A stretch of 64,000 bases of DNA from a candidate division WOR-1 bacterium RIFOXYB2_FULL_42_35 (lineage in GTDB: Bacteria; Margulisbacteria; WOR-1; O2-12-FULL-45-9): NCBI GenBank assembly GCA_001771545.1, contig MEUC01000029.1, positions 1,445 through 65,444 of the forward strand. The letters run 5' to 3'. A program made the position numbers and the translations under genes. Below are positions 956-61,962 of this stretch, one piece after another. The notes below the pieces were generated by a model. It was given only the letters and a program-made list of their open reading frames with translations, was not told where the DNA came from and did no database searches. Numbering within the stretch: the first letter of the stretch is position 1; every line of letters starts with the position of its first letter.

Positions 956-3900
956 TTGTCTTCGTCTGATGGCCAGGGCCTGCCCATTGTTTCCCCGCCT
1001 GTGCAGCCTACAGAGTGTTTGTCTAGCGACCACCCCAAATATTTATTGCAAGTACTATCTGAATATATAGCAGAAGTACGCGATTATAATTCTATAACTT
1101 CTTTTAACCTTGGTTTTGTTGATCAACGCTCAAACCAAATGACCCGTCCATTAGGATTTATGTCTTTATGGTTATTGCTGATCTGGTGGGAAAAAGATTG
1201 CCAACCGCTTAAGGAAAATGACCTTAAAGGTTTATTGCCTGATGGGCAATACAAAGAAACAATTGACAATTTAATTAAAGCTGGCTGGCTGCAAGAAGTT
1301 GCTGGTGGCCTAACGCCTAAGCTGGGTCATTGGCAAGAGAACCCAAAGCGTTTTTGCCAGTTAATAGTAATAAATTTGAGATTTTTCTTAACAGCTTCAA
1401 GGCAGAATGATCCCGGGTGCAAGGAAGACCCCGTGGCTTTCTTTTTGTCTATGGTAGAAATGGACAAAGAGCTTTTATCGCAGTGTGCTGACCAGGAAAA
1501 AATTTTAGTTGCAAAAGAAAACTTAAACAATCCCTGGGAAAAGGCTTTAATGGCTTTTTCTATTGAAAGAAAATTTTATATTTTTACCTTTTTGAGCAAT
1601 TTGGCGCAAAATATTTTTGAAGCTCTTGGTTCTTTGAAGGAGGGTAGTGATATTCCCTTAAGAAGCACAAGATTTCCAGAAAACACATTGTTTCACAAGA
1701 TTTTTTACTCCCATGATGCGTTATCGTTTAGAGATAAAAAAGAGCAATTTGCAAATGCTTCTGACCAAGAAATGCTTAGGTTAAATAATTTGGCAAGTTT
1801 TTATGATGTTCCTTGGCGCATAGCGAAAGTCATAGCTAAAGGCAGGGCAAAACCTGTTTTTGCCGGTGTCTCTATAGGCCAAATAGCAGGACAGCCTTAT
1901 ATATTTATAAAAAATCTTTTCAACTTCACACCAGAACAGGGCTCATCATTTGACATTTCTGGTTCAGGGGGGGCACCCGTGATATTTCTTACAGCAAGTG
2001 ATAGCCGTGACGTATCAATGGCTGTTTTTGACCAAGAGATGCCTTGTGCTTCTATCTTTTCGCAGGTGATAAATCGCCTTTTGTCAAATGATGTGTTTTT
2101 GCGCATAATTGAAGAAAAATGGGATACTTTGATTTTTTCAAAGGTTTTAAGTGAGCCCACAGAGCCGGGTCAGCAAAGATTGCTTTCGATGATTAAATTC
2201 TTTGCTCCTGATGGCCAGCTTACAGATAAAGAGAGTTTTTTAGCTTTTCTGTTTTATATGCTGGTCAATCCTGCTTTTTTGGGTTGTGATTTTGTTTTTG
2301 GCTTTGTTTTACCTCTTTTTTTAAACTGTATTAAGAATATTGACTTTGCAAATAATACCTTTTCTTTAAACACAGAAAACATAACAGCTTTGGCCGAGAA
2401 GTTATCTCAAGAAAGAGAGGGGCAAACGCAGCGGCCCACCAATCCCTCACCTCCCGCTTTAGTAAAAGCACTTTTGCCTGATTTGATAAACTGTGGTTTG
2501 CTTGATATTTCAGTCATACAAGACACCCTGCAATATCACTTAAGCAGGGAATTAGAAGATTTTGTTTTGTTGGACAAATTGCCCTTTGGCCAGCCAGATT
2601 TTGATCAAAGCTCTAAAGAAATACTGGTTGATTATTTTGTTGAGCGTGGTTTTTTGGAAAAAAATGGGGCAGGGGCAGTTAGGTTGAGTGCCCAAAAAAG
2701 ACAAGAAGTAAACGCAAGCATTAGACAGCAACTAATAGAAATTATAAGCCCATTACCTGACAACACCGGCACAACCTTGTCGCGTAACCCACAAGAAAGG
2801 ACAAGAATTGCCGAGATTAATCCTCAACTAAGGGGACAAAGCTTTGCTTTTAAACTAAGGCTTGATCCTGCAGCTATTTCGCGTTTTAGTCAGGCAGGAG
2901 AGGTTATGCCCCTGGCGATACCAGGGTTTAGTTCTTTAGTTTTGTTGCCATCTGCAAAGGCCGCGCGGTTAAAGGATGCCAAAACTATGCTGATTTTAGG
3001 AAATGGGAAAAGAGTTAGATTTTATCTTTTTAATGATGAAACAAGAAAGCTGACGCTTCTTAGCCGTGTCACAGAGGCAGATTTTTTTAATAAAGAGTCA
3101 ACCCCAGAGATGAGTTTTAGCTCAATTCCTTGCTTAGGTAAGGTCAATGTTTTAGGAGCTACCGCAAGCGAACAGCAGGCTTTAGCTCCGCTAGCCAAAA
3201 TATTAGCTGATTTTAATGTACAGGCTTTTGAAGTGCGTGACAGTTTGGCATTTGATTGTCAATGGGAAGGCAATACCCTGGTGCTACGGCCAACTGTTTT
3301 GGCAGACTTGAGTCAGGTTGATGTCTTGTTATTAGCTTGTAATCTGTTGTTAGCTAGAGAAAATGAAGCTAACAAAAAAATAAAAATTATTTTGCAATTA
3401 TTTAAAACAGAAACAAGGCCAGAGTTAATCAAAGAAATGGAAGCAGTGGTTAAAGAACTGCCGGAAGAAAATTTGTTCCGGCATTATCCCGGGCAAATGA
3501 GCGCGGTTATTCGTTTACTCCACGATTTTAAAGACGTCAAAGGCCGCGCGCCAGCAGATTTAAAGCGCTTATTATTAGAGCGGTTATTAGTTTTTAGCCA
3601 GGAAACAAGATCTTCTGATTTTTGCTCGTATACTGGCCAAGGCACAAGCAATAGTATTAAATTGGAGCAATGGCCAGAACAAAAAACCCGTTTTATTGGT
3701 TTAGGTGTAGCTATGGTAGCAGAAAGCCAGGTTGGTTTGGGCAGCCAGGGAGTTGATTTCTTTTGCAGTAACCCGGCAAAGGGTCATTTGCTGCTTTATG
3801 TTTATTTCAGGGATCGAGAAGGTAAAATCATTGAAAAACTTTATACTTTGGCTGGCCAGCCTTATGAGCAGCATTTAATGTGGGAAAGGGATTTAGCTGT

Positions 3901-5179
3901 TATTGAGCAGACACACGGAGTTGATCTTGGTTTTATAAGAAAGCAGGGCTTAACCGAAGTCGAAAAGTTTTTACCTGCGACCCAAACTGTGTTAGCCTGT
4001 TTAGGCAGTGAGAAATTTTTAAAAGACACTTGTGTTTTAACCTCATTATGGCAGCTTTGTTCTGTAGCGCAGGGAGCTGATCTTCCCTTAGTTAGGCAGG
4101 CTTTGCTGGAAAATTTAGTTCCGGCTTTTATAAACAGTAATGAAGCTGAAGTCCAAAAATTGCTTGGCCAAATTTTACTACAGCTAGGTTTAGTTGATAG
4201 GGAGTTTGAATCTGTAGCTGACTGGGCTGATTATATTAATCAAGTAGTCAGGCCTGGTTTGCAGGTATTATCAGGCCAGCTGGCTGATAGTGACGATGTT
4301 TTGTACAATTGGTTGTCAGCTATCGAAGGTCGTTTGCAAGCAGCAGAACAAGCCCAAATTAAAGCTGGCCAAACACTTTTGGGCGAGGTGTTTTATAGGA
4401 ATGTTCCTGATTTAAGGGCTTTAGATCCGCAGACTTTACTTAACCTGGCGCTTTATTTTAAAGCCAGGCAAGCAGTTGGTGATGATCCTCAATTTACAGG
4501 AACTATTACTGAAGTTCTACCCAAAGAAAAAATAGTTGATCCGAGAGAGCGAGCTTTACCAGTAACAGCTTCTCCTGCTGATCGATTGTCTGGCACTTTA
4601 GGAAAAGTAAGAAATCTTTTTGATACTGCTTTGAACGGGGCTGGTTTGGGTGTGCAAAACGCTCTTCAAGCAGCAATTAATGCTGTTAGTTCCTATCCTC
4701 ATCAAGAAGTATTTCTGCCTTTGACCATATTAACAAGCTTGTTGGCCCAGTTTGATTCTAATAATCCTAAAAAGGATGTTACTGCTGTTAGGGATATTAC
4801 ACCCCAAGATCCCCATACTGGCGAAAAAATAAGGTCTGTGCATGTTGCTGGTTTTTCCTGGAATAATGATAGCGTTAAATATTATGTCCGTTTAGTTGCC
4901 AGGCGCCATGCTACTTTTTTTGGTCAAGCGCGGATTAGTGTTACTGTTTTTGCTGATCAAGACCAGCAAAAAGAATTGGCAGCTTTTAGGATTGATCTGG
5001 AAAAAAGAGGCGCAACCATTGATTTGGGCGGTTTATTTATAGCCGAAGCTTTAAGCGTGAGAGCTAGCGGTTATCATTTTGCTTCTTTCTTGCCACGAGC
5101 CTTGTCTGACCCTGATACTTTTTCTAAGTTTATCCAAGATCTTCAGCAAAGGCTCTGGGCTAAGCTGGACGTTAAGTAA
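956..5179 (+). CDS. Very large hypothetical protein (1407 aa). No domain recognised. Rich in Leu, Ala and Gln.
   Basis: Uninterrupted 4.2-kb ORF with a TTG start in the ORF track. No recognisable catalytic motif. Composition is more GC-rich than neighbouring genes. Confidence 0.6.
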   Translation: MSSSDGQGLPIVSPPVQPTECLSSDHPKYLLQVLSEYIAEVRDYNSITSFNLGFVDQRSNQMTRPLGFMSLWLLLIWWEKDCQPLKENDLKGLLPDGQYKETIDNLIKAGWLQEVAGGLTPKLGHWQENPKRFCQLIVINLRFFLTASRQNDPGCKEDPVAFFLSMVEMDKELLSQCADQEKILVAKENLNNPWEKALMAFSIERKFYIFTFLSNLAQNIFEALGSLKEGSDIPLRSTRFPENTLFHKIFYSHDALSFRDKKEQFANASDQEMLRLNNLASFYDVPWRIAKVIAKGRAKPVFAGVSIGQIAGQPYIFIKNLFNFTPEQGSSFDISGSGGAPVIFLTASDSRDVSMAVFDQEMPCASIFSQVINRLLSNDVFLRIIEEKWDTLIFSKVLSEPTEPGQQRLLSMIKFFAPDGQLTDKESFLAFLFYMLVNPAFLGCDFVFGFVLPLFLNCIKNIDFANNTFSLNTENITALAEKLSQEREGQTQRPTNPSPPALVKALLPDLINCGLLDISVIQDTLQYHLSRELEDFVLLDKLPFGQPDFDQSSKEILVDYFVERGFLEKNGAGAVRLSAQKRQEVNASIRQQLIEIISPLPDNTGTTLSRNPQERTRIAEINPQLRGQSFAFKLRLDPAAISRFSQAGEVMPLAIPGFSSLVLLPSAKAARLKDAKTMLILGNGKRVRFYLFNDETRKLTLLSRVTEADFFNKESTPEMSFSSIPCLGKVNVLGATASEQQALAPLAKILADFNVQAFEVRDSLAFDCQWEGNTLVLRPTVLADLSQVDVLLLACNLLLARENEANKKIKIILQLFKTETRPELIKEMEAVVKELPEENLFRHYPGQMSAVIRLLHDFKDVKGRAPADLKRLLLERLLVFSQETRSSDFCSYTGQGTSNSIKLEQWPEQKTRFIGLGVAMVAESQVGLGSQGVDFFCSNPAKGHLLLYVYFRDREGKIIEKLYTLAGQPYEQHLMWERDLAVIEQTHGVDLGFIRKQGLTEVEKFLPATQTVLACLGSEKFLKDTCVLTSLWQLCSVAQGADLPLVRQALLENLVPAFINSNEAEVQKLLGQILLQLGLVDREFESVADWADYINQVVRPGLQVLSGQLADSDDVLYNWLSAIEGRLQAAEQAQIKAGQTLLGEVFYRNVPDLRALDPQTLLNLALYFKARQAVGDDPQFTGTITEVLPKEKIVDPRERALPVTASPADRLSGTLGKVRNLFDTALNGAGLGVQNALQAAINAVSSYPHQEVFLPLTILTSLLAQFDSNNPKKDVTAVRDITPQDPHTGEKIRSVHVAGFSWNNDSVKYYVRLVARRHATFFGQARISVTVFADQDQQKELAAFRIDLEKRGATIDLGGLFIAEALSVRASGYHFASFLPRALSDPDTFSKFIQDLQQRLWAKLDVK

Positions 5180-25029: not shown

Positions 25030-25080
25030 TTCCTTAATTTTGAGCTTTGGTCTTTGATCTTTGAACTTTAGTCTTCTAGG
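25030..25080. repeat. Heptamer-periodic CTTTG repeat tract (ATTTTG-AGCTTTG-GTCTTTG-ATCTTTG-AACTTTA).
   Basis: Seen directly. A member of the dispersed low-complexity family. Confidence 0.6.
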
Positions 25081-27002: not shown

Positions 27003-28511
27003 ATGTTAAAAGATCTTCTTGACGTTAAACGACCAACTACCTGGGGGAATCTTCCTCGCCTCAATCATCATTTATGCAAAGAATGGATCACCACTAATTT
27101 TAAAGACATCTTAGAAACACTGCAAAACACCCCACCGGAAAACTTGGAACCATGGAATACTCTGGGTTTTGTTTGCATTGACAACAATCTCTACCAGGAA
27201 GCAGAAAAAATCTACGATGAATTATTTAAAAAAACCCAAAAGAAACATGGCAACATCGGACTGCCCGCCTACTTTCGCGGGATTGCTCATTTTCTTCAAG
27301 GCAGATTCCAAGACGCTTATAAAGACTTTAAGATGGCCAGACAATTTGAGATTCAGACTAAAAAAGTTAGTGGCACATCTTCACGAGCTATTGCCTATAT
27401 GGAAGAGACCCTTTTTCCTACCAGGGAAATAATCAAAAACAACCAAGCCAGGCTAATTAAAGATCTTAATAATCCCCGTAGCCTTGACCACAATATTGGA
27501 CCTAACATGCTCAGAACAATTCATAAATGGAACTCAGCCACTCCCCTTTTCTCTCACAGCATTTCCCAAGGCGGCGGCTATTTCCTTACTTTAAAAAATA
27601 AACATGGTCAAACCAAAGGGATTGCCATTGATCCTGGCTATGATTTTTTTGATATTTTTAGGGACACCGGCTTGGGCATTGCCGATATTGACGCCATAAT
27701 TATTACTCATGACCATGATGACCATACCGAGTCAGTGGAAGGAATTCTTTCTCTCCTGGCTAAATATAATGATCATAATGAACAAAAAAACACTAAAGTT
27801 CTGGATATCTTTGGTTCTTCCGGCACACTGCTTAAGTTTCACGGCCTGCTTTCAGCCACAGACCTATTTGGCAATCGGGAAATAAACTTCAAGCTCTTGG
27901 TTCCGGGTTCGGAAATCACTGAAATTGAGAATGTTTCTCTCCAAGAAAAACACGGCTTCACCCTGTCAATTAAGCCGGCTCATCATACCGAACGCTGGAC
28001 CAATCAAGAGTCTGCTGTTGGTTTGGTCATCCACACCAATATCCCGGACATTAAGAATGGCGGCCAACTAAACATAGGGATCACTGGAGACACTCGCTAC
28101 GAAGTTGGCATTGGCCGGGCTTACAAGGACTGTCAGGTTTTATTACTGAATATTGGTTCCGTAGAAAAAGAAGAAGGCAAATTTTTAAGCCAACATTTGG
28201 GCATGATTGGTTGTATCAACCTATTAAAAGAGGCCCGCTTAGACAAACATCTGTTGGCCATCCTAACTGAATTTGGCGAAGAGTTTTCCGGTAAGAGAGA
28301 TATTATCAGCCGCATCTTAGAAAACTGGGCCCAACCAATGGCCGGCAACAAACAAAAACAGTTACGGGTTATTCCTGCTGATGTACACCTAGAAGTTCGT
28401 CTGGAAGACTTAAATATCCGCGAAACAGAGACTAAGGTTTTCTTCCCTTATAATATGATTGAAATTGACGAGTCTGATCCGGAAATTTTGAAATACAAGT
28501 TTAATGGCTGA
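27003..28511 (+). CDS. MBL-fold metallo-hydrolase with an N-terminal TPR-like domain.
   Basis: IITHDHDDHTESVEG (HxHxDH) plus downstream His/Asp ligands. Confidence 0.7.
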   Translation: MLKDLLDVKRPTTWGNLPRLNHHLCKEWITTNFKDILETLQNTPPENLEPWNTLGFVCIDNNLYQEAEKIYDELFKKTQKKHGNIGLPAYFRGIAHFLQGRFQDAYKDFKMARQFEIQTKKVSGTSSRAIAYMEETLFPTREIIKNNQARLIKDLNNPRSLDHNIGPNMLRTIHKWNSATPLFSHSISQGGGYFLTLKNKHGQTKGIAIDPGYDFFDIFRDTGLGIADIDAIIITHDHDDHTESVEGILSLLAKYNDHNEQKNTKVLDIFGSSGTLLKFHGLLSATDLFGNREINFKLLVPGSEITEIENVSLQEKHGFTLSIKPAHHTERWTNQESAVGLVIHTNIPDIKNGGQLNIGITGDTRYEVGIGRAYKDCQVLLLNIGSVEKEEGKFLSQHLGMIGCINLLKEARLDKHLLAILTEFGEEFSGKRDIISRILENWAQPMAGNKQKQLRVIPADVHLEVRLEDLNIRETETKVFFPYNMIEIDESDPEILKYKFNG

Positions 28512-29907
28512 GATATTTTTCAACCACTTCTCTATCATCAAGAGATACTTTCTTCCCATTAAAATCCTGAAACTGCTCATGCCCCCGCCCAGCAATTAGA
28601 ACGGTGTCTCCCTTTTTCGCCATCGACAAGGCTTGTTCAATTGCCTTCTTCCTATCTATTTGAACTTTGAGCTTTGAGCTTGGGATTTCCTTTGAACTTT
28701 GAGCTTTGGACTTTGATCTTATAATGTCATCAATGATAGCCTGCGGCTCTTCCCCATGCGGATCGTCTGTAGTCACAATAACAAGATCAGCCAATCTTCC
28801 CGCAATCTCCCCCATCACCGGCCGTTTGGCTTTATCACGATCACCCGGGCAACCAAAAACGAGAATAACTTTGCCTTCAGTTAGAGGACGAAAAGTTTCT
28901 ATTAGTTTCTGCAATGCATCTGGTGAATGGGCAAAGTCGACAATAACACGAAATGGTTGCCCACAATCAACAGGCTCAACCCGACCTGGCACAGTTTTCA
29001 AGGCTTCAATCCCTTGTTTAATAACTCTTTGGGGAACACCAAGAACTAAGGCACACTGATAAGCAGCAACTATATTATAAACATTGGGCAGGCCAATTAA
29101 ATTCGTGCGAATATCCAAAGAATTTATTCTTAAAAGCATCTCCTTAGCCATGACCTTGATACTGACAATATTGGTATCAAAGTCATTATGTTTGGTATTA
29201 CGTAATTCATGCTTAGCCTGACCGATCCCATAAGTAACAACCTCTCCTGGAACAACAGCCATAACCTTATTAGTATAGGGATCATCAGCATTAATAATCG
29301 CAATCCCATCATTAGGCAGCATTTTAAATAATTCCAGTTTGGCAGCTAAGTACTGTTCCATATTTTGATGAAAATCAAGGTGATCGTGGGTCAAGTTTGT
29401 AAAGATAGCCACAGCAAACTCGCAACCAGCAACCCGCAACTGACTCAAGGCATGTGAGGAAACCTCCATGACACAATGGGTTACTCCCCTTTTAACCATT
29501 TCCGCCAACATCGGCTGCAGATCTGATGCCTCTGGAGTTGTTAAAGAAGAATTAATGGTGCCAATCACTTCGGTCTTATGACCGGCTTTTTTTAGAATCG
29601 ATTGAATAAGATAAGCTGTTGTGGTTTTTCCGTTTGTTCCAGTAATACCAATTAATTTTAATTTTTTAGAAGGATAATCATAAACCTCACAAGCCAACTC
29701 AGCCAAAGCTTTTCTTGCCGAGGAAACCTTCTTAAACTCTATTCCGGCAGGAACTTGGACATCTTTTTCAGCGACAATTAACTTGGCCCCGGCCTCAACT
29801 GCCTGAGGAATAAAATCAGTCCCATTAAACTTAGCCCCCGGAATAGCTACATAAATATAGCCCGGCTTAACCTTTCTTGAATCGTGTGTTATGCCCTTAT
29901 ACTTCAT
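28501..29907 (-). CDS. murE: UDP-N-acetylmuramoyl-L-alanyl-D-glutamate–2,6-diaminopimelate ligase.
   Basis: GITGTNGKTTTAYL and the DNPR-type motif. The probable true start is MKYKGITHDSRK at 29907. The 29949 ORF start lies in repeat DNA. Confidence 0.85.
   Translation of the reverse strand: MKYKGITHDSRKVKPGYIYVAIPGAKFNGTDFIPQAVEAGAKLIVAEKDVQVPAGIEFKKVSSARKALAELACEVYDYPSKKLKLIGITGTNGKTTTAYLIQSILKKAGHKTEVIGTINSSLTTPEASDLQPMLAEMVKRGVTHCVMEVSSHALSQLRVAGCEFAVAIFTNLTHDHLDFHQNMEQYLAAKLELFKMLPNDGIAIINADDPYTNKVMAVVPGEVVTYGIGQAKHELRNTKHNDFDTNIVSIKVMAKEMLLRINSLDIRTNLIGLPNVYNIVAAYQCALVLGVPQRVIKQGIEALKTVPGRVEPVDCGQPFRVIVDFAHSPDALQKLIETFRPLTEGKVILVFGCPGDRDKAKRPVMGEIAGRLADLVIVTTDDPHGEEPQAIIDDIIRSKSKAQSSKEIPSSKLKVQIDRKKAIEQALSMAKKGDTVLIAGRGHEQFQDFNGKKVSLDDREVVEKYLSH
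28650..28712. repeat. 63-bp CAAAGNN heptamer-repeat insertion lying in frame inside murE. It encodes SKSKAQSSKEIPSSKLKVQ.
   Basis: gaactttgagctttgagcttgggatttcctttgaactttgagctttggactttgatctt. The reverse complement translates in the murE frame. Confidence 0.7.
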
Positions 29908-29929
29908 AAAAGCTCCAAGATCAAAGTAC

Positions 29930-30090
29930 AAAGTCCAAAATAAGTCCAAAATCCCAAGAGCAAACTTACAAATTTGATCTTTTGACTTGGATCTTTGATA
30001 TTGTTTTGTCCCGCTTCCATCATCTGATAATTATTGCGGGATCCCGCAAGGCGGGAATCTTTGGACCTAGATCTTTGATCTTCCATATTA
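29930..30090. repeat. Palindromic array of heptamer-type repeats (CAAAGTC… then …TTTGATC) with an embedded TCCCGC-AAG-GCGGGA hairpin.
   Basis: Seen directly in the murE–femX intergenic region. Confidence 0.6.
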
Positions 30091-31155: not shown

Positions 31156-31366
31156 GTCTAACGGTTATTATATCAACCATTAATTAGAAGGACAAACAAA
31201 AAGCGCCCGGCTTTAGCTTTCAAATCCTGCAAGGGACTTACTCGCCAAAGCCAGGCTGTTTTTTATTCGTCCCCGATGTAACATCGGAAAACAGGAATAA
31301 GTCTTGGACTTAATTTTGCACGCTCTGCATTTCCGTAGAGATACAAACTCCGGCATCTTTAAGTAT

Positions 31367-31448
31367 TCGACCAGGTGAACCGCGTTGTTGTTATAACGAT
31401 TATCAGGGTTGTTGTTGTTGTTGCGGTTCGCGTTGTTCAGAGAACGCC
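31367..31448 (-). repeat. DGR template repeat (TR), adenine-rich on the minus strand with AAC codons.
   Basis: 82-bp match to 32845-32926 with 12 mismatches. All 12 are A in this copy (minus strand). Confidence 0.85.
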
Positions 31449-31460
31449 GGATTTACAGGC

Positions 31461-32456
31461 TTATCCCTTTATTAAAATATTAGAAAACAATTTTCTCCTT
31501 AGATGGAATGAATTGGCAAATACGGCGTACCCCAGCCAGCTTTGTATTGAGCAAGTAATCTTGGGTATGGACATTAAGTTGCTTTGAAAAAGGCTGATAT
31601 ATTTTCTCATTCTTATTTTAAAGCGCTTGACGTTTTCTTTGGCCACCAGCTTATGGCTGGGATAAACCTTATAGCCAAGAAACTTCACGCCGTTCTTAGT
31701 TGGATAGACCTGGCATTTATTAGCATGCAGTTGCAGCTTTAGCTTTTCAAGATAATCAGCAATTCTTTTTCTGGCCTGGTTTAGCTGTCCTTTATCATTA
31801 CCAAATACTATCAGGTCGTCCATATAACGGAGGTAAAACCGGCATTTAAGGTTTTCTTTTAAATAATGGTCTAACCCATTGAGATAAAGATTGGCAAATA
31901 TCTGGCTAGCTAAATTCCCAATCGGAATCCCAGGAGAAGGTGTTGAATCAATAATTAGTTTAATCAGCCAAAGAGCTTCCGGGTCTTTTATCTTATCCAT
32001 AATCATCCCGAGTAAGATTTCGTGATCTATGGAAGCAAAATAGTTTTTAACGTCGCACTTCAAAGCATATTTATTTTTGCGGCAATATACTTGAAACCGG
32101 CTAACAGCCCGATGGCTGCCTTTGCTTTTCCGGCAAGCGTAGGAATCGAAGATCAGCACCCGATCAAAAATGGGCTCAATGACATTGCAAAGTGCATGCT
32201 GGGCAACTCGATCTCGGTAAGGCAAGGCACTGATTAGTCTCTTTTTCGGATCATAGATATGGAATTGCTTGTAGTGACCAACCCGATATGTGTGGCTTTG
32301 GAGTTCTGCCTGAAGAGTAAAAATCTCTTTTTCAAAACCAAGATTAAAATCGCTGACAGGGGTTTTGAGCTTCTTGCCTCTCTGGGCCTTCCCGGCCGCT
32401 AAAAGGAGGTTCTCAAAAGAGCAGATTTTCTCATAAAGATTATGATGCCTTTTCAT
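31461..32456 (-). CDS. Diversity-generating-retroelement reverse transcriptase.
   Basis: RT motifs …RYMDDLIVFG… and the DGR-specific IPIGNLASQIFANLYLNGLD. Flanked by TR and VR. Confidence 0.85.
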   Translation of the reverse strand: MKRHHNLYEKICSFENLLLAAGKAQRGKKLKTPVSDFNLGFEKEIFTLQAELQSHTYRVGHYKQFHIYDPKKRLISALPYRDRVAQHALCNVIEPIFDRVLIFDSYACRKSKGSHRAVSRFQVYCRKNKYALKCDVKNYFASIDHEILLGMIMDKIKDPEALWLIKLIIDSTPSPGIPIGNLASQIFANLYLNGLDHYLKENLKCRFYLRYMDDLIVFGNDKGQLNQARKRIADYLEKLKLQLHANKCQVYPTKNGVKFLGYKVYPSHKLVAKENVKRFKIRMRKYISLFQSNLMSIPKITCSIQSWLGYAVFANSFHLRRKLFSNILIKG

Positions 32457-32778
32457 GTTTTAGCCAGCCCCCAACCTGGGAACCGATTTCCAAAAGATAT
32501 CGGGCAGCGAACTCATAGCTCTTAAGATTGATCAAACGCAGATCATGGCTAAGGCGAAACAGATAGCGCAGCTTTTCAATTTCAAGATTTGCGTTCTTAA
32601 GCGCATTAGTTTTGTCTTTGGAATATTGGGCTTCAATGAGAAGCTCCAACAGGCCAATTACTTTATTTTCGATTCTTTCTCCGAGGGTATATCTTTGATT
32701 GCGCGGGAACTTCGCAATGTGGGGGACGACCCATCTGAGGAAATCATAGGAACAGGTTACGACTTTTGGCCCTTCCAT
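32440..32778 (-). CDS. Probable DGR accessory variability determinant (Avd-like small helical protein).
   Basis: 112-aa helical ORF between the VR-bearing target and the RT. Overlaps the RT start by 17 nt. Confidence 0.5.
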   Translation of the reverse strand: MEGPKVVTCSYDFLRWVVPHIAKFPRNQRYTLGERIENKVIGLLELLIEAQYSKDKTNALKNANLEIEKLRYLFRLSHDLRLINLKSYEFAARYLLEIGSQVGGWLKHEKAS

Positions 32779-32837
32779 ATTATGCTAAAATTTTCCTTCC
32801 CCACCCCTAAAAAAGTAAAAGGATAAAGCTTAATTTA

Positions 32838-33500
32838 TTAGTCCTCGACCAGGTGAACCGCGCTGCTGCCATAACGATCATCAGGGCTGCTGCTGAAGTT
32901 GCGGTTCGCGTAGTACAGAGAACGCCAATAGTAGGTGTCACTCCCCTTGCTGCTTTCTACCAAAAACCAATTATTCCCTCTCAGTTTAGCTTTCACATCA
33001 GCTGGTAAAGCCACAAATTCAGCCTCAGTCATAAACCTAAACTTTCTGCCTCGTTCATTTGCTCCTTTAATATAGTTCTTCGCATCATCCACATTTAAAA
33101 ACGTCAATGTCTCTCCGCTCGGCTCTTTCAAGCGGTCCCGAAGCGCTTCCTTGTTATGGCCGCTAACTTTCTCTGGCTTTAAGAATTGTGCGGCTTCAGC
33201 GTCTGTTAATTCTCCTATCATTATTTTTTTATAAGTTTGCCCCTCAACATTAAGCATATGCGGGAAAATTGTCTCGGGCTGGACTATATCCACAAGTTCT
33301 ATTTGAATGGCAACAGGATCTCGCCTTTGAGCTAGTAGAGATGGGAGGTCAGCGACCTTGTCTTCTGGTCTAAAACCTGGTCCTTTATGACCTGCCAGTC
33401 TTTTTGCCATTGCCTCTACTTTGGCTTTGTCTGACACTCCATCACTGGCACGGACTAGAACAGAACCTAAACTCTTTTTATCAATCCTTAAAAAACTCAT
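32838..33500 (-). CDS. DGR variable (target) protein with a minimal C-type-lectin/FGE-like fold. The VR lies at the C-terminus.
   Basis: …RKFRFMTEAEFVA… then WRSLYYANRNFSSSPDDRYGSSAVHLVED, encoded by the VR. Confidence 0.75.
   Translation of the reverse strand: MSFLRIDKKSLGSVLVRASDGVSDKAKVEAMAKRLAGHKGPGFRPEDKVADLPSLLAQRRDPVAIQIELVDIVQPETIFPHMLNVEGQTYKKIMIGELTDAEAAQFLKPEKVSGHNKEALRDRLKEPSGETLTFLNVDDAKNYIKGANERGRKFRFMTEAEFVALPADVKAKLRGNNWFLVESSKGSDTYYWRSLYYANRNFSSSPDDRYGSSAVHLVED
32845..32926 (-). repeat. DGR variable repeat (VR).
   Basis: Pairs with the TR at 31367-31448. The substitutions A→G (8) and A→T (4) all fall at TR adenines. Confidence 0.85.
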
Positions 33501-33588: not shown

Positions 33589-33897
33589 TTGAAAATAGTT
33601 TTGGGAGGAGAAGGCATGGTGCCAAAAAAAGAACTTAACACGGCAGTTAAACTCGCCAAAGAATACGGTGTGGGAAAATTGTATTTGTTTGGGTCTTCTT
33701 TGCATAAAAAATCCAGCGCAGTGAACGATTACGACTTCGCCGTAGCAGGCATCGCCCCTTCCAGGTTCTTTGCGTTTTATGGCAAATTATTTAGGGCTTT
33801 AAGCAAACCCGTCGATCTTGTCGATCTTTCGGAAAAATCTCTTTTTAATTCTCTCATAATAAGGGAAGGGAAGAAAATCTATGATAAATCTTCCTGA
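33589..33897 (+). CDS. Minimal nucleotidyltransferase (MntA-like antitoxin).
   Basis: GKLYLFGSSLHKKSSAVNDYDFAV matches the pol-beta NTase motif GS…D.D. Its 3' end overlaps the following HEPN gene. Confidence 0.65.
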   Translation: MKIVLGGEGMVPKKELNTAVKLAKEYGVGKLYLFGSSLHKKSSAVNDYDFAVAGIAPSRFFAFYGKLFRALSKPVDLVDLSEKSLFNSLIIREGKKIYDKSS

Positions 33898-34297
33898 GAA
33901 AATTTCCGCAGAAATAGACAATATAGAAAAATCCCTGGCCAATCTTTCCTCGCCCCTAAAGAAAAAGAAGAAATCAATTATAGAAATAGCGGGGATGGCC
34001 GCTTTCATCCAAAACATTTACAATGGTATCGAAAACATTTTAAAACAAATATTGAAGTCCAAAAACGTTTCTGTTGCTCACCCTGAAATATGGCACAAGG
34101 AATTACTGGAAAAATCAGTTAAAAACAACATCATCCCCGACGAGCTGGCCGAAGCACTTTACGAGTATCTCACCTTCAGGCATTTTTTTATCCATTCTTA
34201 TAGTTTTATGCTGGACAAAAAAAAAGTAGTTGCGCTGGCAAACAACATAAACAAGCTTTGGCAAAAGTTTTTAGGAGAAATAAAACCTTACCGGTAA
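33881..34297 (+). CDS. HEPN-domain (HepT-like) toxin.
   Basis: The R-x4-H motif in …[10 protein letters not shown]…. Confidence 0.6.
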
Positions 34298-35666: not shown

Positions 35667-37289
<1,623 letters not shown>

Positions 37290-37297
<8 letters not shown>

Positions 37298-37640
37298 AAA
37301 TGGTCCCCTTCTTTATATTATCAACAACTTGCTTAACGCGAATATCTCTTATCCCTGCAGGAGTTAAAAGATCAACTTTTCTACCAAATGAATCTTCAAG
37401 AAAAAAAGCCAAATCCATAAAATTATCAAAACTGGTTTTCTTAAATTCAACAACCAAATCTATATCACTTTGGCTACTTTGTTCACCCCGGGCAAAAGAA
37501 CCAAACAAGCCAATGCGTTTAACATTAAATTTCTGCAAAACCCCGCTATTTTTCTTTAAAAAGCCTAAAATATCATCAGCCGTAAGATTTTTGCCATCTT
37601 TTCCTTTTTTATCATCTTTCATGTTTATTAGTATACCCAA
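37290..37640 (-). CDS. Nucleotidyltransferase antitoxin (MntA family).
   Basis: IGLFGSFARGEQSSQSDIDLVV. Confidence 0.7.
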
Positions 37641-48624: not shown

Positions 48625-49311
48625 ATGATAAAGATCAAAGATCAAAATTTAAAGATCAAAACAAATCCCCAGATCAAAATCCCAAAGAATAAAAAGATTG
48701 GAGTTTTGATCTTATTATTTGGGATTTGTTTTGGATTTTGGTCTTTGAGCTTTGAACTTCCTGCCAAGGCCTGGAGCATCAACACCGAACTCAGGCAAGA
48801 AATAGCGGCTAAGCAAGCCGCGGTGGCTAAAGCACCCAACAGCGCCCTAGCCCACTTTGACCTGGGCATCACCTATGCTTACACCAACAACATCCAAAAA
48901 GGCTGGGACGAACTAAAAAAAGTTGAAGAACTAAACCCCAAGTTTCGCTCACAAGGCAGGAATCTTTACATTAACAAGGTCACCGCAGATCCCGATGATT
49001 GGCGGCTGCGGTTTCGCCTGGCTTTTGCCTACTATTTTAACAATGAAAAAAATGATGCCATCAGAGAACTTAAAAATGTTTTAATTATTGATCCTAATAA
49101 TGTTTGGGCTTATGGCTACTTGGCTCTAATTTATGGGGAACTAAACGAAGTTGATACCGCCATAGATTACACTAAAAAAGGCATAAAGATTGATAGCAAT
49201 GTTGCTGCCCTTCATCTCCTCCTGTCAGAAGGCTATTATAAAAAAGGCAACTCTTGGGGCGGTTTTATAGAAAGAATGGAAGCAGTCCGTTTACTAGCTT
49301 TAGGATTTTAA
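48625..49311 (+). CDS. TPR-repeat protein with an N-terminal signal anchor. The first ~55 codons are encoded by a palindromic heptamer-repeat element.
   Basis: TPR motifs …AHFDLGITYAY… and WAYGYLALIYGE. The N-terminus MIKIKDQNLKIK…GVLILLFGICFGFWSLSF lies within repeat DNA. Confidence 0.6.
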   Translation: MIKIKDQNLKIKTNPQIKIPKNKKIGVLILLFGICFGFWSLSFELPAKAWSINTELRQEIAAKQAAVAKAPNSALAHFDLGITYAYTNNIQKGWDELKKVEELNPKFRSQGRNLYINKVTADPDDWRLRFRLAFAYYFNNEKNDAIRELKNVLIIDPNNVWAYGYLALIYGELNEVDTAIDYTKKGIKIDSNVAALHLLLSEGYYKKGNSWGGFIERMEAVRLLALGF

Positions 49312-61035: not shown

Positions 61036-61962
61036 TTAAACTTGCCGGCCAACTGCTAACATTTTTTCAATAGCCAGACGCGCTTTAGCCGCTATTTCGG
61101 GCGGGACTCTTACTTCTGTTATTAAATCTTCTAACGACCAAAGGATTTTCTCAAGAGTGGTTAACTTCATATTAGGGCAAATTGCGCTAGCCAGTGCGGG
61201 ATAAAAGTTTTTTTCTGGGTTTTGTCTTTTAAGACTATGAAGAATCCCAATTTCGGTCGCCAGGATAAACTCTTTACTCCCTGATTCTTTAGCTAATTTG
61301 AGCATGCCTCCGGTTGATAAGACATAATCAGCCAAAGCAATTGTTTCTGGCCGGCATTCCGGATGGACCAAGACCTTTGCTCCCGGATATTTATCTTTGG
61401 CTGTCATAATATGCTCAGGCAAAATTTTGGCATGCGTTGGACAAAAACCTTGCCACAAGATAATTCTCTTATCCTTCACCTTACTGGCAACATAACTCCC
61501 CAAATATTTATCCGGTACAAAAATAATTTCTTCTGTATTGGTCAAGGACTCAACTACCCTAATCGCATTAGCAGAAGTACAACAGATATCAGACTCTGCC
61601 TTAATATCTGCCCCACTATTGACATAGCAAACCACTTTGGCCTTTGGATTTTGATCCTTGAGCTTCTTAAGGGCTGTAACGGTAATCATATCCGCCATGG
61701 GACAGCCCGCATTGATCTCAGGGACAACAACCTTCTTATCAATGGAAATGATCGCAGCAGTTTCTGCCATAAAGTTTACACCACAGAACACAATTAACTT
61801 TGCTGTGGTTTTCGACGCTTCAATAGAAAGGCCTAGAGAATCCCCAGTGTAATCGGCAATATCCTGGACCTCCCCTATTTGATAGTTATGCGCCAGGACG
61901 ACCGCGTTGTGGTTTTTTTTCAACTTATTGATTTTGTTTATTAGATTATTTTTCATTGTCAA
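61036..61962 (-). CDS. nadA: Quinolinate synthase.
   Basis: Three-fold repeat with the Cys ligands characteristic of NadA. Confidence 0.85.
   Translation of the reverse strand: MTMKNNLINKINKLKKNHNAVVLAHNYQIGEVQDIADYTGDSLGLSIEASKTTAKLIVFCGVNFMAETAAIISIDKKVVVPEINAGCPMADMITVTALKKLKDQNPKAKVVCYVNSGADIKAESDICCTSANAIRVVESLTNTEEIIFVPDKYLGSYVASKVKDKRIILWQGFCPTHAKILPEHIMTAKDKYPGAKVLVHPECRPETIALADYVLSTGGMLKLAKESGSKEFILATEIGILHSLKRQNPEKNFYPALASAICPNMKLTTLEKILWSLEDLITEVRVPPEIAAKARLAIEKMLAVGRQV

Follow-up and report, generated by a model that had tools for sequence, protein, structure and literature searches.

A diversity-generating retroelement (DGR) was investigated in 64,000 nucleotides of genomic DNA from candidate division WOR-1 bacterium RIFOXYB2_FULL_42_35 (contig MEUC01000029.1, positions 1,445 to 65,444), hereafter referred to as the window. 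The region under study is best explained as the 3' part of a chromosomal DGR with the catalogued order target gene with variable repeat (VR), avd, reverse transcriptase (RT) gene and template repeat (TR). The TR and a structured RNA of about 170 nt would form one functional unit, equivalent to the TR plus spacer (Sp) of the DGR of phage BPP-1. We assign a probability of roughly 0.8 to this reading.

On the minus strand, the target open reading frame (ORF; 33500..32838) is followed by avd (32778..32440), the RT gene (32456..31461) and the TR. The 3' end of avd overlaps the start of the RT gene by 17 nt, and 12 nt separate the RT stop codon (TAA, 31463-31461) from the start of the TR. The initial annotation, which had been made from the sequence alone, had recognised a DGR with the order target-VR, avd, RT and TR on the minus strand. 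The ORFs and the repeat coordinates bear out this order, and the TR does lie directly 3' of the RT gene, at a spacing of 12 nt rather than the ~13 nt given. The identification as a DGR is likewise confirmed by the adenine-only mismatches between TR and VR and by the profile matches of Avd and of the RT to RVT_1 (Table 1).

The homologous block has the annotated length of 82 bp (31448-31367 aligned with 32926-32845), and all 12 mismatches in it are located at adenines of the TR (chance probability 3.7e-7). The 28 TR adenines all occupy codon positions 1 or 2, comprising 12 AAY codons and four single sites, and a gap of 5 nt separates the end of the VR from the stop codon of the target. Pattern searches of the 64-kb window revealed one TR and one VR (two matches in each search, against 0.00 and 0.02 expected from shuffles) and no further copy of either; thus, the second, better-matching TR that the initial annotation had named as counter-evidence was not found there. 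Beyond the core, a weaker TR/VR similarity with non-adenine differences extends to ~31355 and resembles the divergence between the two initiation of mutagenic homology elements (IMH* and IMH) of known DGRs. An inverted repeat was also observed inside the TR, where GCGAACCGC and GCGGUUCAC (31423-31430 and 31375-31383, minus strand) form a stem in the minimum free energy (MFE) fold; the VR contains this inverted repeat as well, at the same positions.

DGR-type RTs are recognised by the motifs I/LGxxxSQ and YxDD and by their closeness to bRT, the enzyme of BPP-1. The RT translation contains IGNLASQ and YMDD, and its best match among solved structures was 8ub7 ("Reverse transcriptase"; E 4.4e-66, residues 2-319), which we take to be BPP-1 bRT. 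The avd product scored 110 bits against NCBIfam NF033474 (cutoff 80 bits); Avd occurs in most, but not all, DGRs. Adenine-confined TR/VR differences, a DGR-type RT, a VR at the 3' end of the target gene and Avd are therefore all present in this element. The variable regions of DGR targets characteristically adopt a C-type-lectin or immunoglobulin fold. Similarity between the window target and the C-type-lectin-like ends of the targets of relatives was weak (hhalign E 0.033, probability 1.5%), and a single-sequence AlphaFold model was discarded at a predicted local distance difference test score (pLDDT) of 35. The end of the target weakly resembles the LRGGSW...R.A.R...P..R...GFR end of these lectin-like targets. 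The target appears to carry an insertion in this segment, so that the VR would span just the second half of the segment; such an insertion may explain why the TR, at 82 nt, is shorter than the 106-155 nt found in most relatives.

A structured RNA adjoining the template repeat

The RNA directly 3' of the TR extends over ~170 nt (31366-31198, minus strand), and the 315 nt from the RT end folded with a z-score of -4.8 against shuffled sequence. The entire model of the Rfam family RT-14 (RF02921; positions 1-144 of 144) aligned to 31365-31205, and the E value was 7e-4 when 401 nt were searched and 0.005 when 2.8 kb were searched; the score of 38.4 bits is below the gathering threshold of 48.1 bits, and the RNA is therefore called RT-14-like rather than a member of the family. 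Its three stems P1, P2 and P3 are paired in the RT-14 alignment except for a few non-standard pairs, and the conserved UUAUUCC and AGUA...GAA loop are covered. All of these elements are thus shared with RT-14, whereas the family consensus reads AGUAUUAAAG where the window has the GUCCAAG segment. At the Rfam gathering threshold, the whole window yielded one tRNA only. Rfam matches to miRNA, CrcZ, SdsR and JPX (E 1-6) were attributed to chance.

Related elements were collected as 122 loci encoding relatives of the RT (numbered from L001), in which TR/VR pairs were located as adenine-biased repeats; the sample is biased towards kin of the window RT. In Desulfosporosinus acididurans (L010), RT-14 scored 60.6 bits, which is above the gathering threshold, and its match falls precisely into the gap that separates the end of the TR (3809) from the start of the RT (4001). 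This placement identifies RT-14 as a spacer-type RNA of DGRs, and a role as DGR spacer RNA is likely for this orphan motif, to which Rfam RF02921 assigns no function. RT-14 belongs to the set of "RT" motifs described by Weinberg et al. 2017 (PMC5737381). These authors located RT-10 in the phage BPP-1 spacer that separates the TR from brt, and they speculated that further RT motifs are part of DGRs.

Two covariance models, R1 and R2, were built on the 5' two-thirds of the RNA, the latter without any window sequence. R1 detected 28 plausible loci, always beside a DGR RT, and R2 recovered 31366-31261 with 40.9 bits (E 3.8e-11 over the 64-kb window; next match 15.9 bits). In the relatives, the RNA always adjoins the TR, regardless of whether the latter stands before or after the RT. 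Matches scoring 22 bits or less, namely, R1 at window positions 36288-36405 and in L023 and R2 at 36453-36548, were regarded as spurious; both of the window matches lie antisense inside the serS ORF.

MAFFT alignment of the whole RNA was reliable in its 5' half alone; hence, P3 was analysed separately, and the long-range pairings were tested by comparing cognate with non-cognate duplex energies. In P1c, two-sided changes occur at nine of the 10 pairs, 92% of the alignment cells are paired, and the covariation score is 0.64 against 0.19 for shuffled and at most 0.21 for slid controls. The outer stem of P3 carries compensatory changes at all 12 predicted pairs among 11 loci, and its GUA...GAA is invariant. 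This AGUA...GAA(A) loop, invariant in the window and 10 related loci, presumably resembles the loop E or sarcin-ricin consensus, a common protein-binding module.

The anatomy of the RNA suggests roles for several of its parts. The UACG-capped P1c is a candidate Avd-binding stem-loop and, as a protein-binding candidate, stronger than P2, and P3 is a candidate RT-binding stem that, with the U-tract, probably also serves as the transcript end. The 5' strand of P1a (ACUUAA) is a candidate for the template strand of a template:primer duplex. The GUCCAR motif is a candidate site of the priming nucleotide, which, by analogy with BPP-1, is probably A31305 or A31304 within GUCCAAG. The initial annotation had singled out a hairpin as the possible TR-associated structured RNA. 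The hairpin exists (CCGATG-TTA-CATCGG) and belongs to the conserved RT-14-like RNA, at 31287-31273, about 3 nt away from the 31270-31284 first given, but it forms only the middle stem, P2, of an RNA with three domains. The accompanying proposal that the priming region lies inside or very near the homologous block is supported, with the region placed within ~60 nt of the TR 3' end.

The RNA is further connected with the flanks of the TR by long-range pairings. The core strand GGGAUAAG (31467-31460) pairs with CUUAUUCC (31301-31294) both in the MFE fold and by duplexfold, and it is a candidate counterpart of the upstream strand of the "cPRT Stop" duplex of BPP-1. CUUAUUCC aligns to the conserved UUUAUUCC of the RT-14 consensus, which is drawn single-stranded by Rfam; in L010 (3809-3951), the UUUAUUCC region pairs with a stretch immediately upstream of the TR, outside the Rfam model (GGGGAAUGGGCC with GGUCCAUUUCCC, 12 bp). 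These pairings suggest that the conserved stretch of RT-14 drawn single-stranded is one strand of a long-range duplex. For 20 non-redundant loci, pairing with the own flanks was compared with pairing with the flanks of other loci (Mann-Whitney). The segment after GUCC paired with the sequence upstream of the TR at -17.7 kcal/mol in cognate and -10.6 kcal/mol in non-cognate combinations (p 5e-10; cognate best in 12 of the 20 loci), and the strand ending in GUCC paired with the TR 3' end at -9.3 and -5.5 kcal/mol, respectively (p 1.6e-5; cognate best in eight of the 20). The upstream-strand duplex of the window reached -12.3 kcal/mol and ranked third. The paired sequences vary between loci (GGGGAACGGGUG/CACCCGUUUCCC in L003, GGGGAAUGGGCC/GGUCCAUUUCCC in L010), and L013 carries a compensatory change in the template:primer pairing, with GGUUC in the RNA and GAACC in the TR.

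Table 1. Features of the retroelement in the window, in 5' to 3' order on the minus strand
Feature	Position	Strand	Basis or remark
Target gene, 220 aa, VR at extreme C-terminus	32838..33500	-	ORF
VR	32845..32926	-	82-nt match to TR, 12 mismatches, all at TR adenines
avd, 112 aa	32440..32778	-	bAvd PF22296 1.2e-20; NF033474 DivGenRetAVD
DGR RT, 331 aa	31461..32456	-	RVT_1 7.5e-26
Long-range duplex, 5' strand, core GGGAUAAG (31467-31460)	31457..31468	-	contains RT stop UAA 31463-31461
TR core	31367..31448	-	82-nt match to VR
Diverged TR tail (IMH*-like)	31355..31366	-	partial VR-flank similarity, non-adenine differences
Outer stem P1a	31364-31359 with 31313-31308	-	ACUUAA : UUAAGU, Rfam RT-14 alignment
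P1b	31354-31353 with 31319-31318	-	GC : GC, RT-14 alignment
P1c hairpin	31324..31347	-	10-position stem, one C·A mismatch, C(UACG)G tetraloop cap
Primer-side strand UUAAGU, then GUCCAR motif	31302..31313	-	GUCCAG conserved across covariance-model alignment
Conserved motif GUCCAAGA	31309-31302	-	GUCCAG in relatives
Long-range duplex, 3' strand CUUAUUCC	31294..31301	-	MFE fold, duplex prediction
P2 hairpin, then GAA	31269..31292	-	10-bp stem, one bulge
A-rich single-stranded linker GAAUAAAAAAC	31258..31268	-	fold and RT-14 alignment
P3 and U-tract	31198..31256	-	stem 31256-31244 with 31217-31205, AGUA/GAAA internal loop, inner hairpin
U-tract UUUUU	31202-31198	-	sequence

Gene order among related retroelements

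The location of the TR 3' of the RT had initially been considered unusual, and a comparison with catalogued architectures had been proposed. This comparison shows that the claim was overstated, because the layout, while less common than VR-avd-TR-RT, is catalogued and typical of the nearest relatives of the RT. In the window, avd, RT and TR share a strand and the TR comes last; this component order is identical to that of architecture B2 of Wu et al. 2018 (PMC5758913) and of DiGReF structural group 2, which comprises DGRs with the TR downstream of the RT (Schillinger et al. 2012, PMC3521204). Group 2 was reported to be mostly cyanobacterial (PMC3521204), whereas the relatives with the same layout found here are metagenome-assembled genomes (MAGs) labelled Thermodesulfobacteriota, KSB1, Deltaproteobacteria and Cloacimonadota.

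The RT-then-TR layout was found in about 16 of the ~70 classifiable relatives. The TR follows the RT in L001, L002, L003, L008, L011, L014, L015, L017, L044, L059, L076 and L078, with 6-25 nt between the RT stop and the TR start in L002, L011, L014, L015, L044, L059, L076 and L078; L025, L045, L055 and L086 were judged to have the same layout according to where the RNA or an AAC-rich block is located. A rough neighbour-joining tree, which carries no support values, places the window in a group with L043, L001, L002, L044 and L045, the last four of which have the order RT>TR>RNA; the RT>TR layout appears at no fewer than three places in the tree.

Several relatives deviate from this pattern. 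The RT frame has no stop before the TR and stays open through it in L001 (4001-5320), L003 (1514-2776) and L008 (4001-5311); these frames would correspond to DiGReF group 3, in which the TR overlaps the RT ORF (PMC3521204), or may reflect an assembly effect. In four Saccharibacteria-like loci (L012, L070, L071 and L119), the TR lies just after the RT on the opposite strand; DiGReF group 4 comprises DGRs with TR and RT on different strands (PMC3521204). The closest relative of the RT (60% identity) is encoded in L043 (1-1700), where VR, avd and RT are arranged as in the window. No TR or RNA was found within 3 kb after this RT, an opposite-strand ORF follows, and the sole resemblance to the beginning of its VR is GTCCGCGGC behind the stop codon; L043 may be a DGR that lost its TR or one whose TR is located elsewhere.

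The order VR-avd-RNA-TR-RT was observed in L005 (3625-3918), L013 (2082-2410), L046 (676-966), L047 (1-281), L048 (1009-1355) and L009 (3630-3955), with a TR-RT gap of 25-82 nt; two of these loci are labelled Omnitrophota MAGs. Both long-range pairings are kept, for example between GACUUCC at the TR 3' end and GGAAGUC in the RNA. The arrangement resembles a circularly permuted DGR RNA, and no description of a DGR permutation with the RNA before the TR was found in the searchable literature. Within the RT clade, the RNA thus takes one of three positions. It comes after a TR placed behind the RT, as in the window, or after a TR placed ahead of the RT, and in L005, L013, L046-L048 and L009 it precedes the TR instead; all three placements keep the same long-range pairings.

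It is accordingly the TR, rather than the RT gene, that the priming RNA always adjoins, and this aids the annotation of DGR RNAs where the gene order differs. The apparently permuted relatives, if real, would be natural test cases for the geometry of cis-priming in DGRs. A broader proposal, to which we give rather little weight, is that the TR and its priming RNA constitute a movable and even circularly permutable unit whose folding competes with translation. The 5' strand of the long-range duplex holds the RT stop codon, so a single molecule would not be able to terminate RT translation and fold its template RNA at the same time; if true, newly made RT could be favoured to act on its own transcript.

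Proposed mechanism and alternative explanations

In the proposed mechanism, the transcript would fold so that GGGAUAAG, with the RT stop codon, pairs with the downstream CUUAUUCC, thereby enclosing the TR and fixing the far end of cDNA synthesis. The UACG-capped hairpin would dock on Avd, and the long 3' stem with the AGUA/GAA loop would dock on the RT. The diverged TR tail would pair with the UUAAGU-CC strand and place a nucleotide of GUCCAR as the cis primer. The RT would then copy ~95-100 nt from about 31366, the last TR/VR difference and an A-to-G site, back towards 31460, misincorporating at the 28 adenines and stopping before 31460, and the resulting cDNA would replace the VR. The protein contacts, the priming nucleotide, the cDNA ends and the activity of the element are all inferred by analogy with BPP-1.

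Several observations weigh against this reading. The template:primer pairing of the window consists of 6 A/U-rich bp (-3.6 kcal/mol) and is no better than non-cognate pairings, and the priming nucleotide is uncertain because the window has GUCCAAG where the relatives have GUCCAG. The RT-14 score does not reach the gathering threshold. R1 found nothing in BPP-1 2000-5000 with filters off, and Rfam RT-10 gave no match to the window at E values up to 10. The target had no sequence match in Pfam, NCBIfam or PDB. No hairpin was found downstream of the VR, the stretch 32740-32870 containing only two short palindromes; a DNA hairpin or cruciform downstream of the VR and IMH is not universal among DGRs.

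As a variant of the same explanation, the TR and RNA might be produced as their own short transcript from an internal promoter in the 3' end of the RT gene, which we regard as a minor but serious possibility. A sigma-70-like site (TTGCCA-18-GAAAAT, 9 of 12 matches) is present at 31519-31490 on the minus strand, and the transcript start would fall ~15 nt upstream of the 5' duplex strand. A ribosome terminating at the UAA (31463-31461) would presumably unwind the duplex, and an untranslated transcript would therefore fold more easily. However, promoter-like sites occur in the region at the frequency expected by chance (6 found against 5.4 expected), and the upstream strand of BPP-1 is likewise situated within the final codons of avd, the ORF that comes before the TR, which indicates that overlap with a coding end is normal.

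It is improbable that the element is an inactive relic, with the TR and RNA kept by descent alone. The lack of a hairpin downstream of the VR and the weak template:primer pairing would fit such a relic, but the three ORFs are intact, the catalytic YMDD and IGNLASQ are present, none of the 12 AAY codons of the TR is disrupted, and the VR is in frame and differs at adenine positions only. Even less credible is the explanation that the downstream structure is solely an intrinsic terminator and 3' untranslated region of the DGR operon with no role in reverse transcription. P3 is indeed a GC-rich stem followed by UUUUU, and a promoter-like site for the next gene comes directly after it (31195-31167). 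Nevertheless, the RNA adjoins the TR rather than the operon end and lies between TR and RT in L010, L004, L006, L060 and others; P1c and P3 covary and contain invariant loop motifs; the RNA segments pair specifically with the TR flanks of their own locus; and a terminator scan made no call there. That the window copy is incidental and another, longer TR of the genome acts as the true donor is very hard to credit: the TR is short in comparison with the 106-155 nt of most relatives and the search covered 64 kb, but no second copy is present in the window, and the TR is flanked by the RT and the conserved RNA of the family, with flanks that form the expected pairings.

The genomic surroundings of the DGR were also inspected. 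Pfam confirmed a FemAB-family gene and a nucleotidyltransferase/HepT pair among the neighbours; a murE-like ORF of 482 aa (28501-29949), a probable glutamine amidotransferase, serS and cysS were provisionally named from the ORF translations. The best promoter-like site in the region (31167-31195, minus strand; TTGTCC, 17-nt spacer and TG-extended TATAAT, 10 of 12 matches) sits between the U-tract of the DGR RNA and the FemAB-family gene. Two nucleotidyltransferase/HepT-like pairs occur near the DGR, at 33589-34297 (plus strand; Pfam Polbeta and HepT-like_2) and at 36959-37640 (minus strand; read from ORF translations), and one of them abuts the upstream region of the target gene. Eight copies of a T/G-rich repeat of ~31 nt, TTTGAGCTTTGGTCTTTGATCTT, were located at 25038-25068, 28658-28727, 29972-30082, 48729-48759 and 61635-61665; at least some of them fall within the terminal part of the 482-aa ORF, and there the other strand codes for a tail rich in Lys and Ser.

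Comparison with the retroelement of phage BPP-1

The window was compared with BPP-1 by inspection of the phage spacer sequence and by reference to the cryo-electron microscopy description of its ribonucleoprotein (Handa et al., bioRxiv 10.1101/2023.10.23.563531). In that structure, an Avd-binding stem-loop with a UNCG tetraloop stands at the start of Sp, the TR 3' end pairs with Sp 47-56 in the template:primer duplex, in which A56 is the primer and G57 is required, and Sp 59-70 pairs with the last avd codons upstream of the TR in the "cPRT Stop" duplex. A short stem-loop, the A-minor adenosines, the single-stranded "Thumb Ring" and a long bRT-binding stem with internal loops then follow (bioRxiv 10.1101/2023.10.23.563531).

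The phage spacer has the same C(UACG)G loop in Sp 3-33 as P1c of the window, then GGUC-A56-G57, the stop strand two bases on, a short stem-loop and GAA. In BPP-1, a short stem-loop (Sp 71-78) precedes G79, A80 and A81; P2 occupies the position of this stem-loop, and the linker GAAUAAAAAAC would correspond by position to the A-minor adenosines and the "Thumb Ring". R1 is blind to the BPP-1 spacer and RT-10 does not match the window; therefore, the correspondence rests on element order and short motifs, and a shared organisation is claimed here rather than demonstrated homology.

The DGR of BPP-1 (mtd-avd-TR-Sp-brt) and that of the window have in common the RT matching 8ub7, Avd, adenine-specific transfer from TR to VR and a VR at the C-terminus of the target. 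They differ in that BPP-1 is a phage with a TR of 134 nt, whereas the window element is chromosomal, has a TR of 82 nt and is without a hairpin downstream of the VR. The upstream strand lies in the end of avd in BPP-1 and in the 3' end of the RT gene in the window, where it is drawn from the last RT codons because the TR-plus-RNA unit lies after the RT. The window thus contributes a further DGR to the catalogued layout; its TR, with 12 AAY codons, is unusually short, and its target is small. The order of the RNA elements is the same in both systems: an upstream strand within the final codons of the ORF before the TR, the TR itself, the C(UACG)G stem-loop, GUC(C)-A-G, the stop-duplex strand, a short stem-loop, GAA, a single-stranded linker and a long stem with internal loops.

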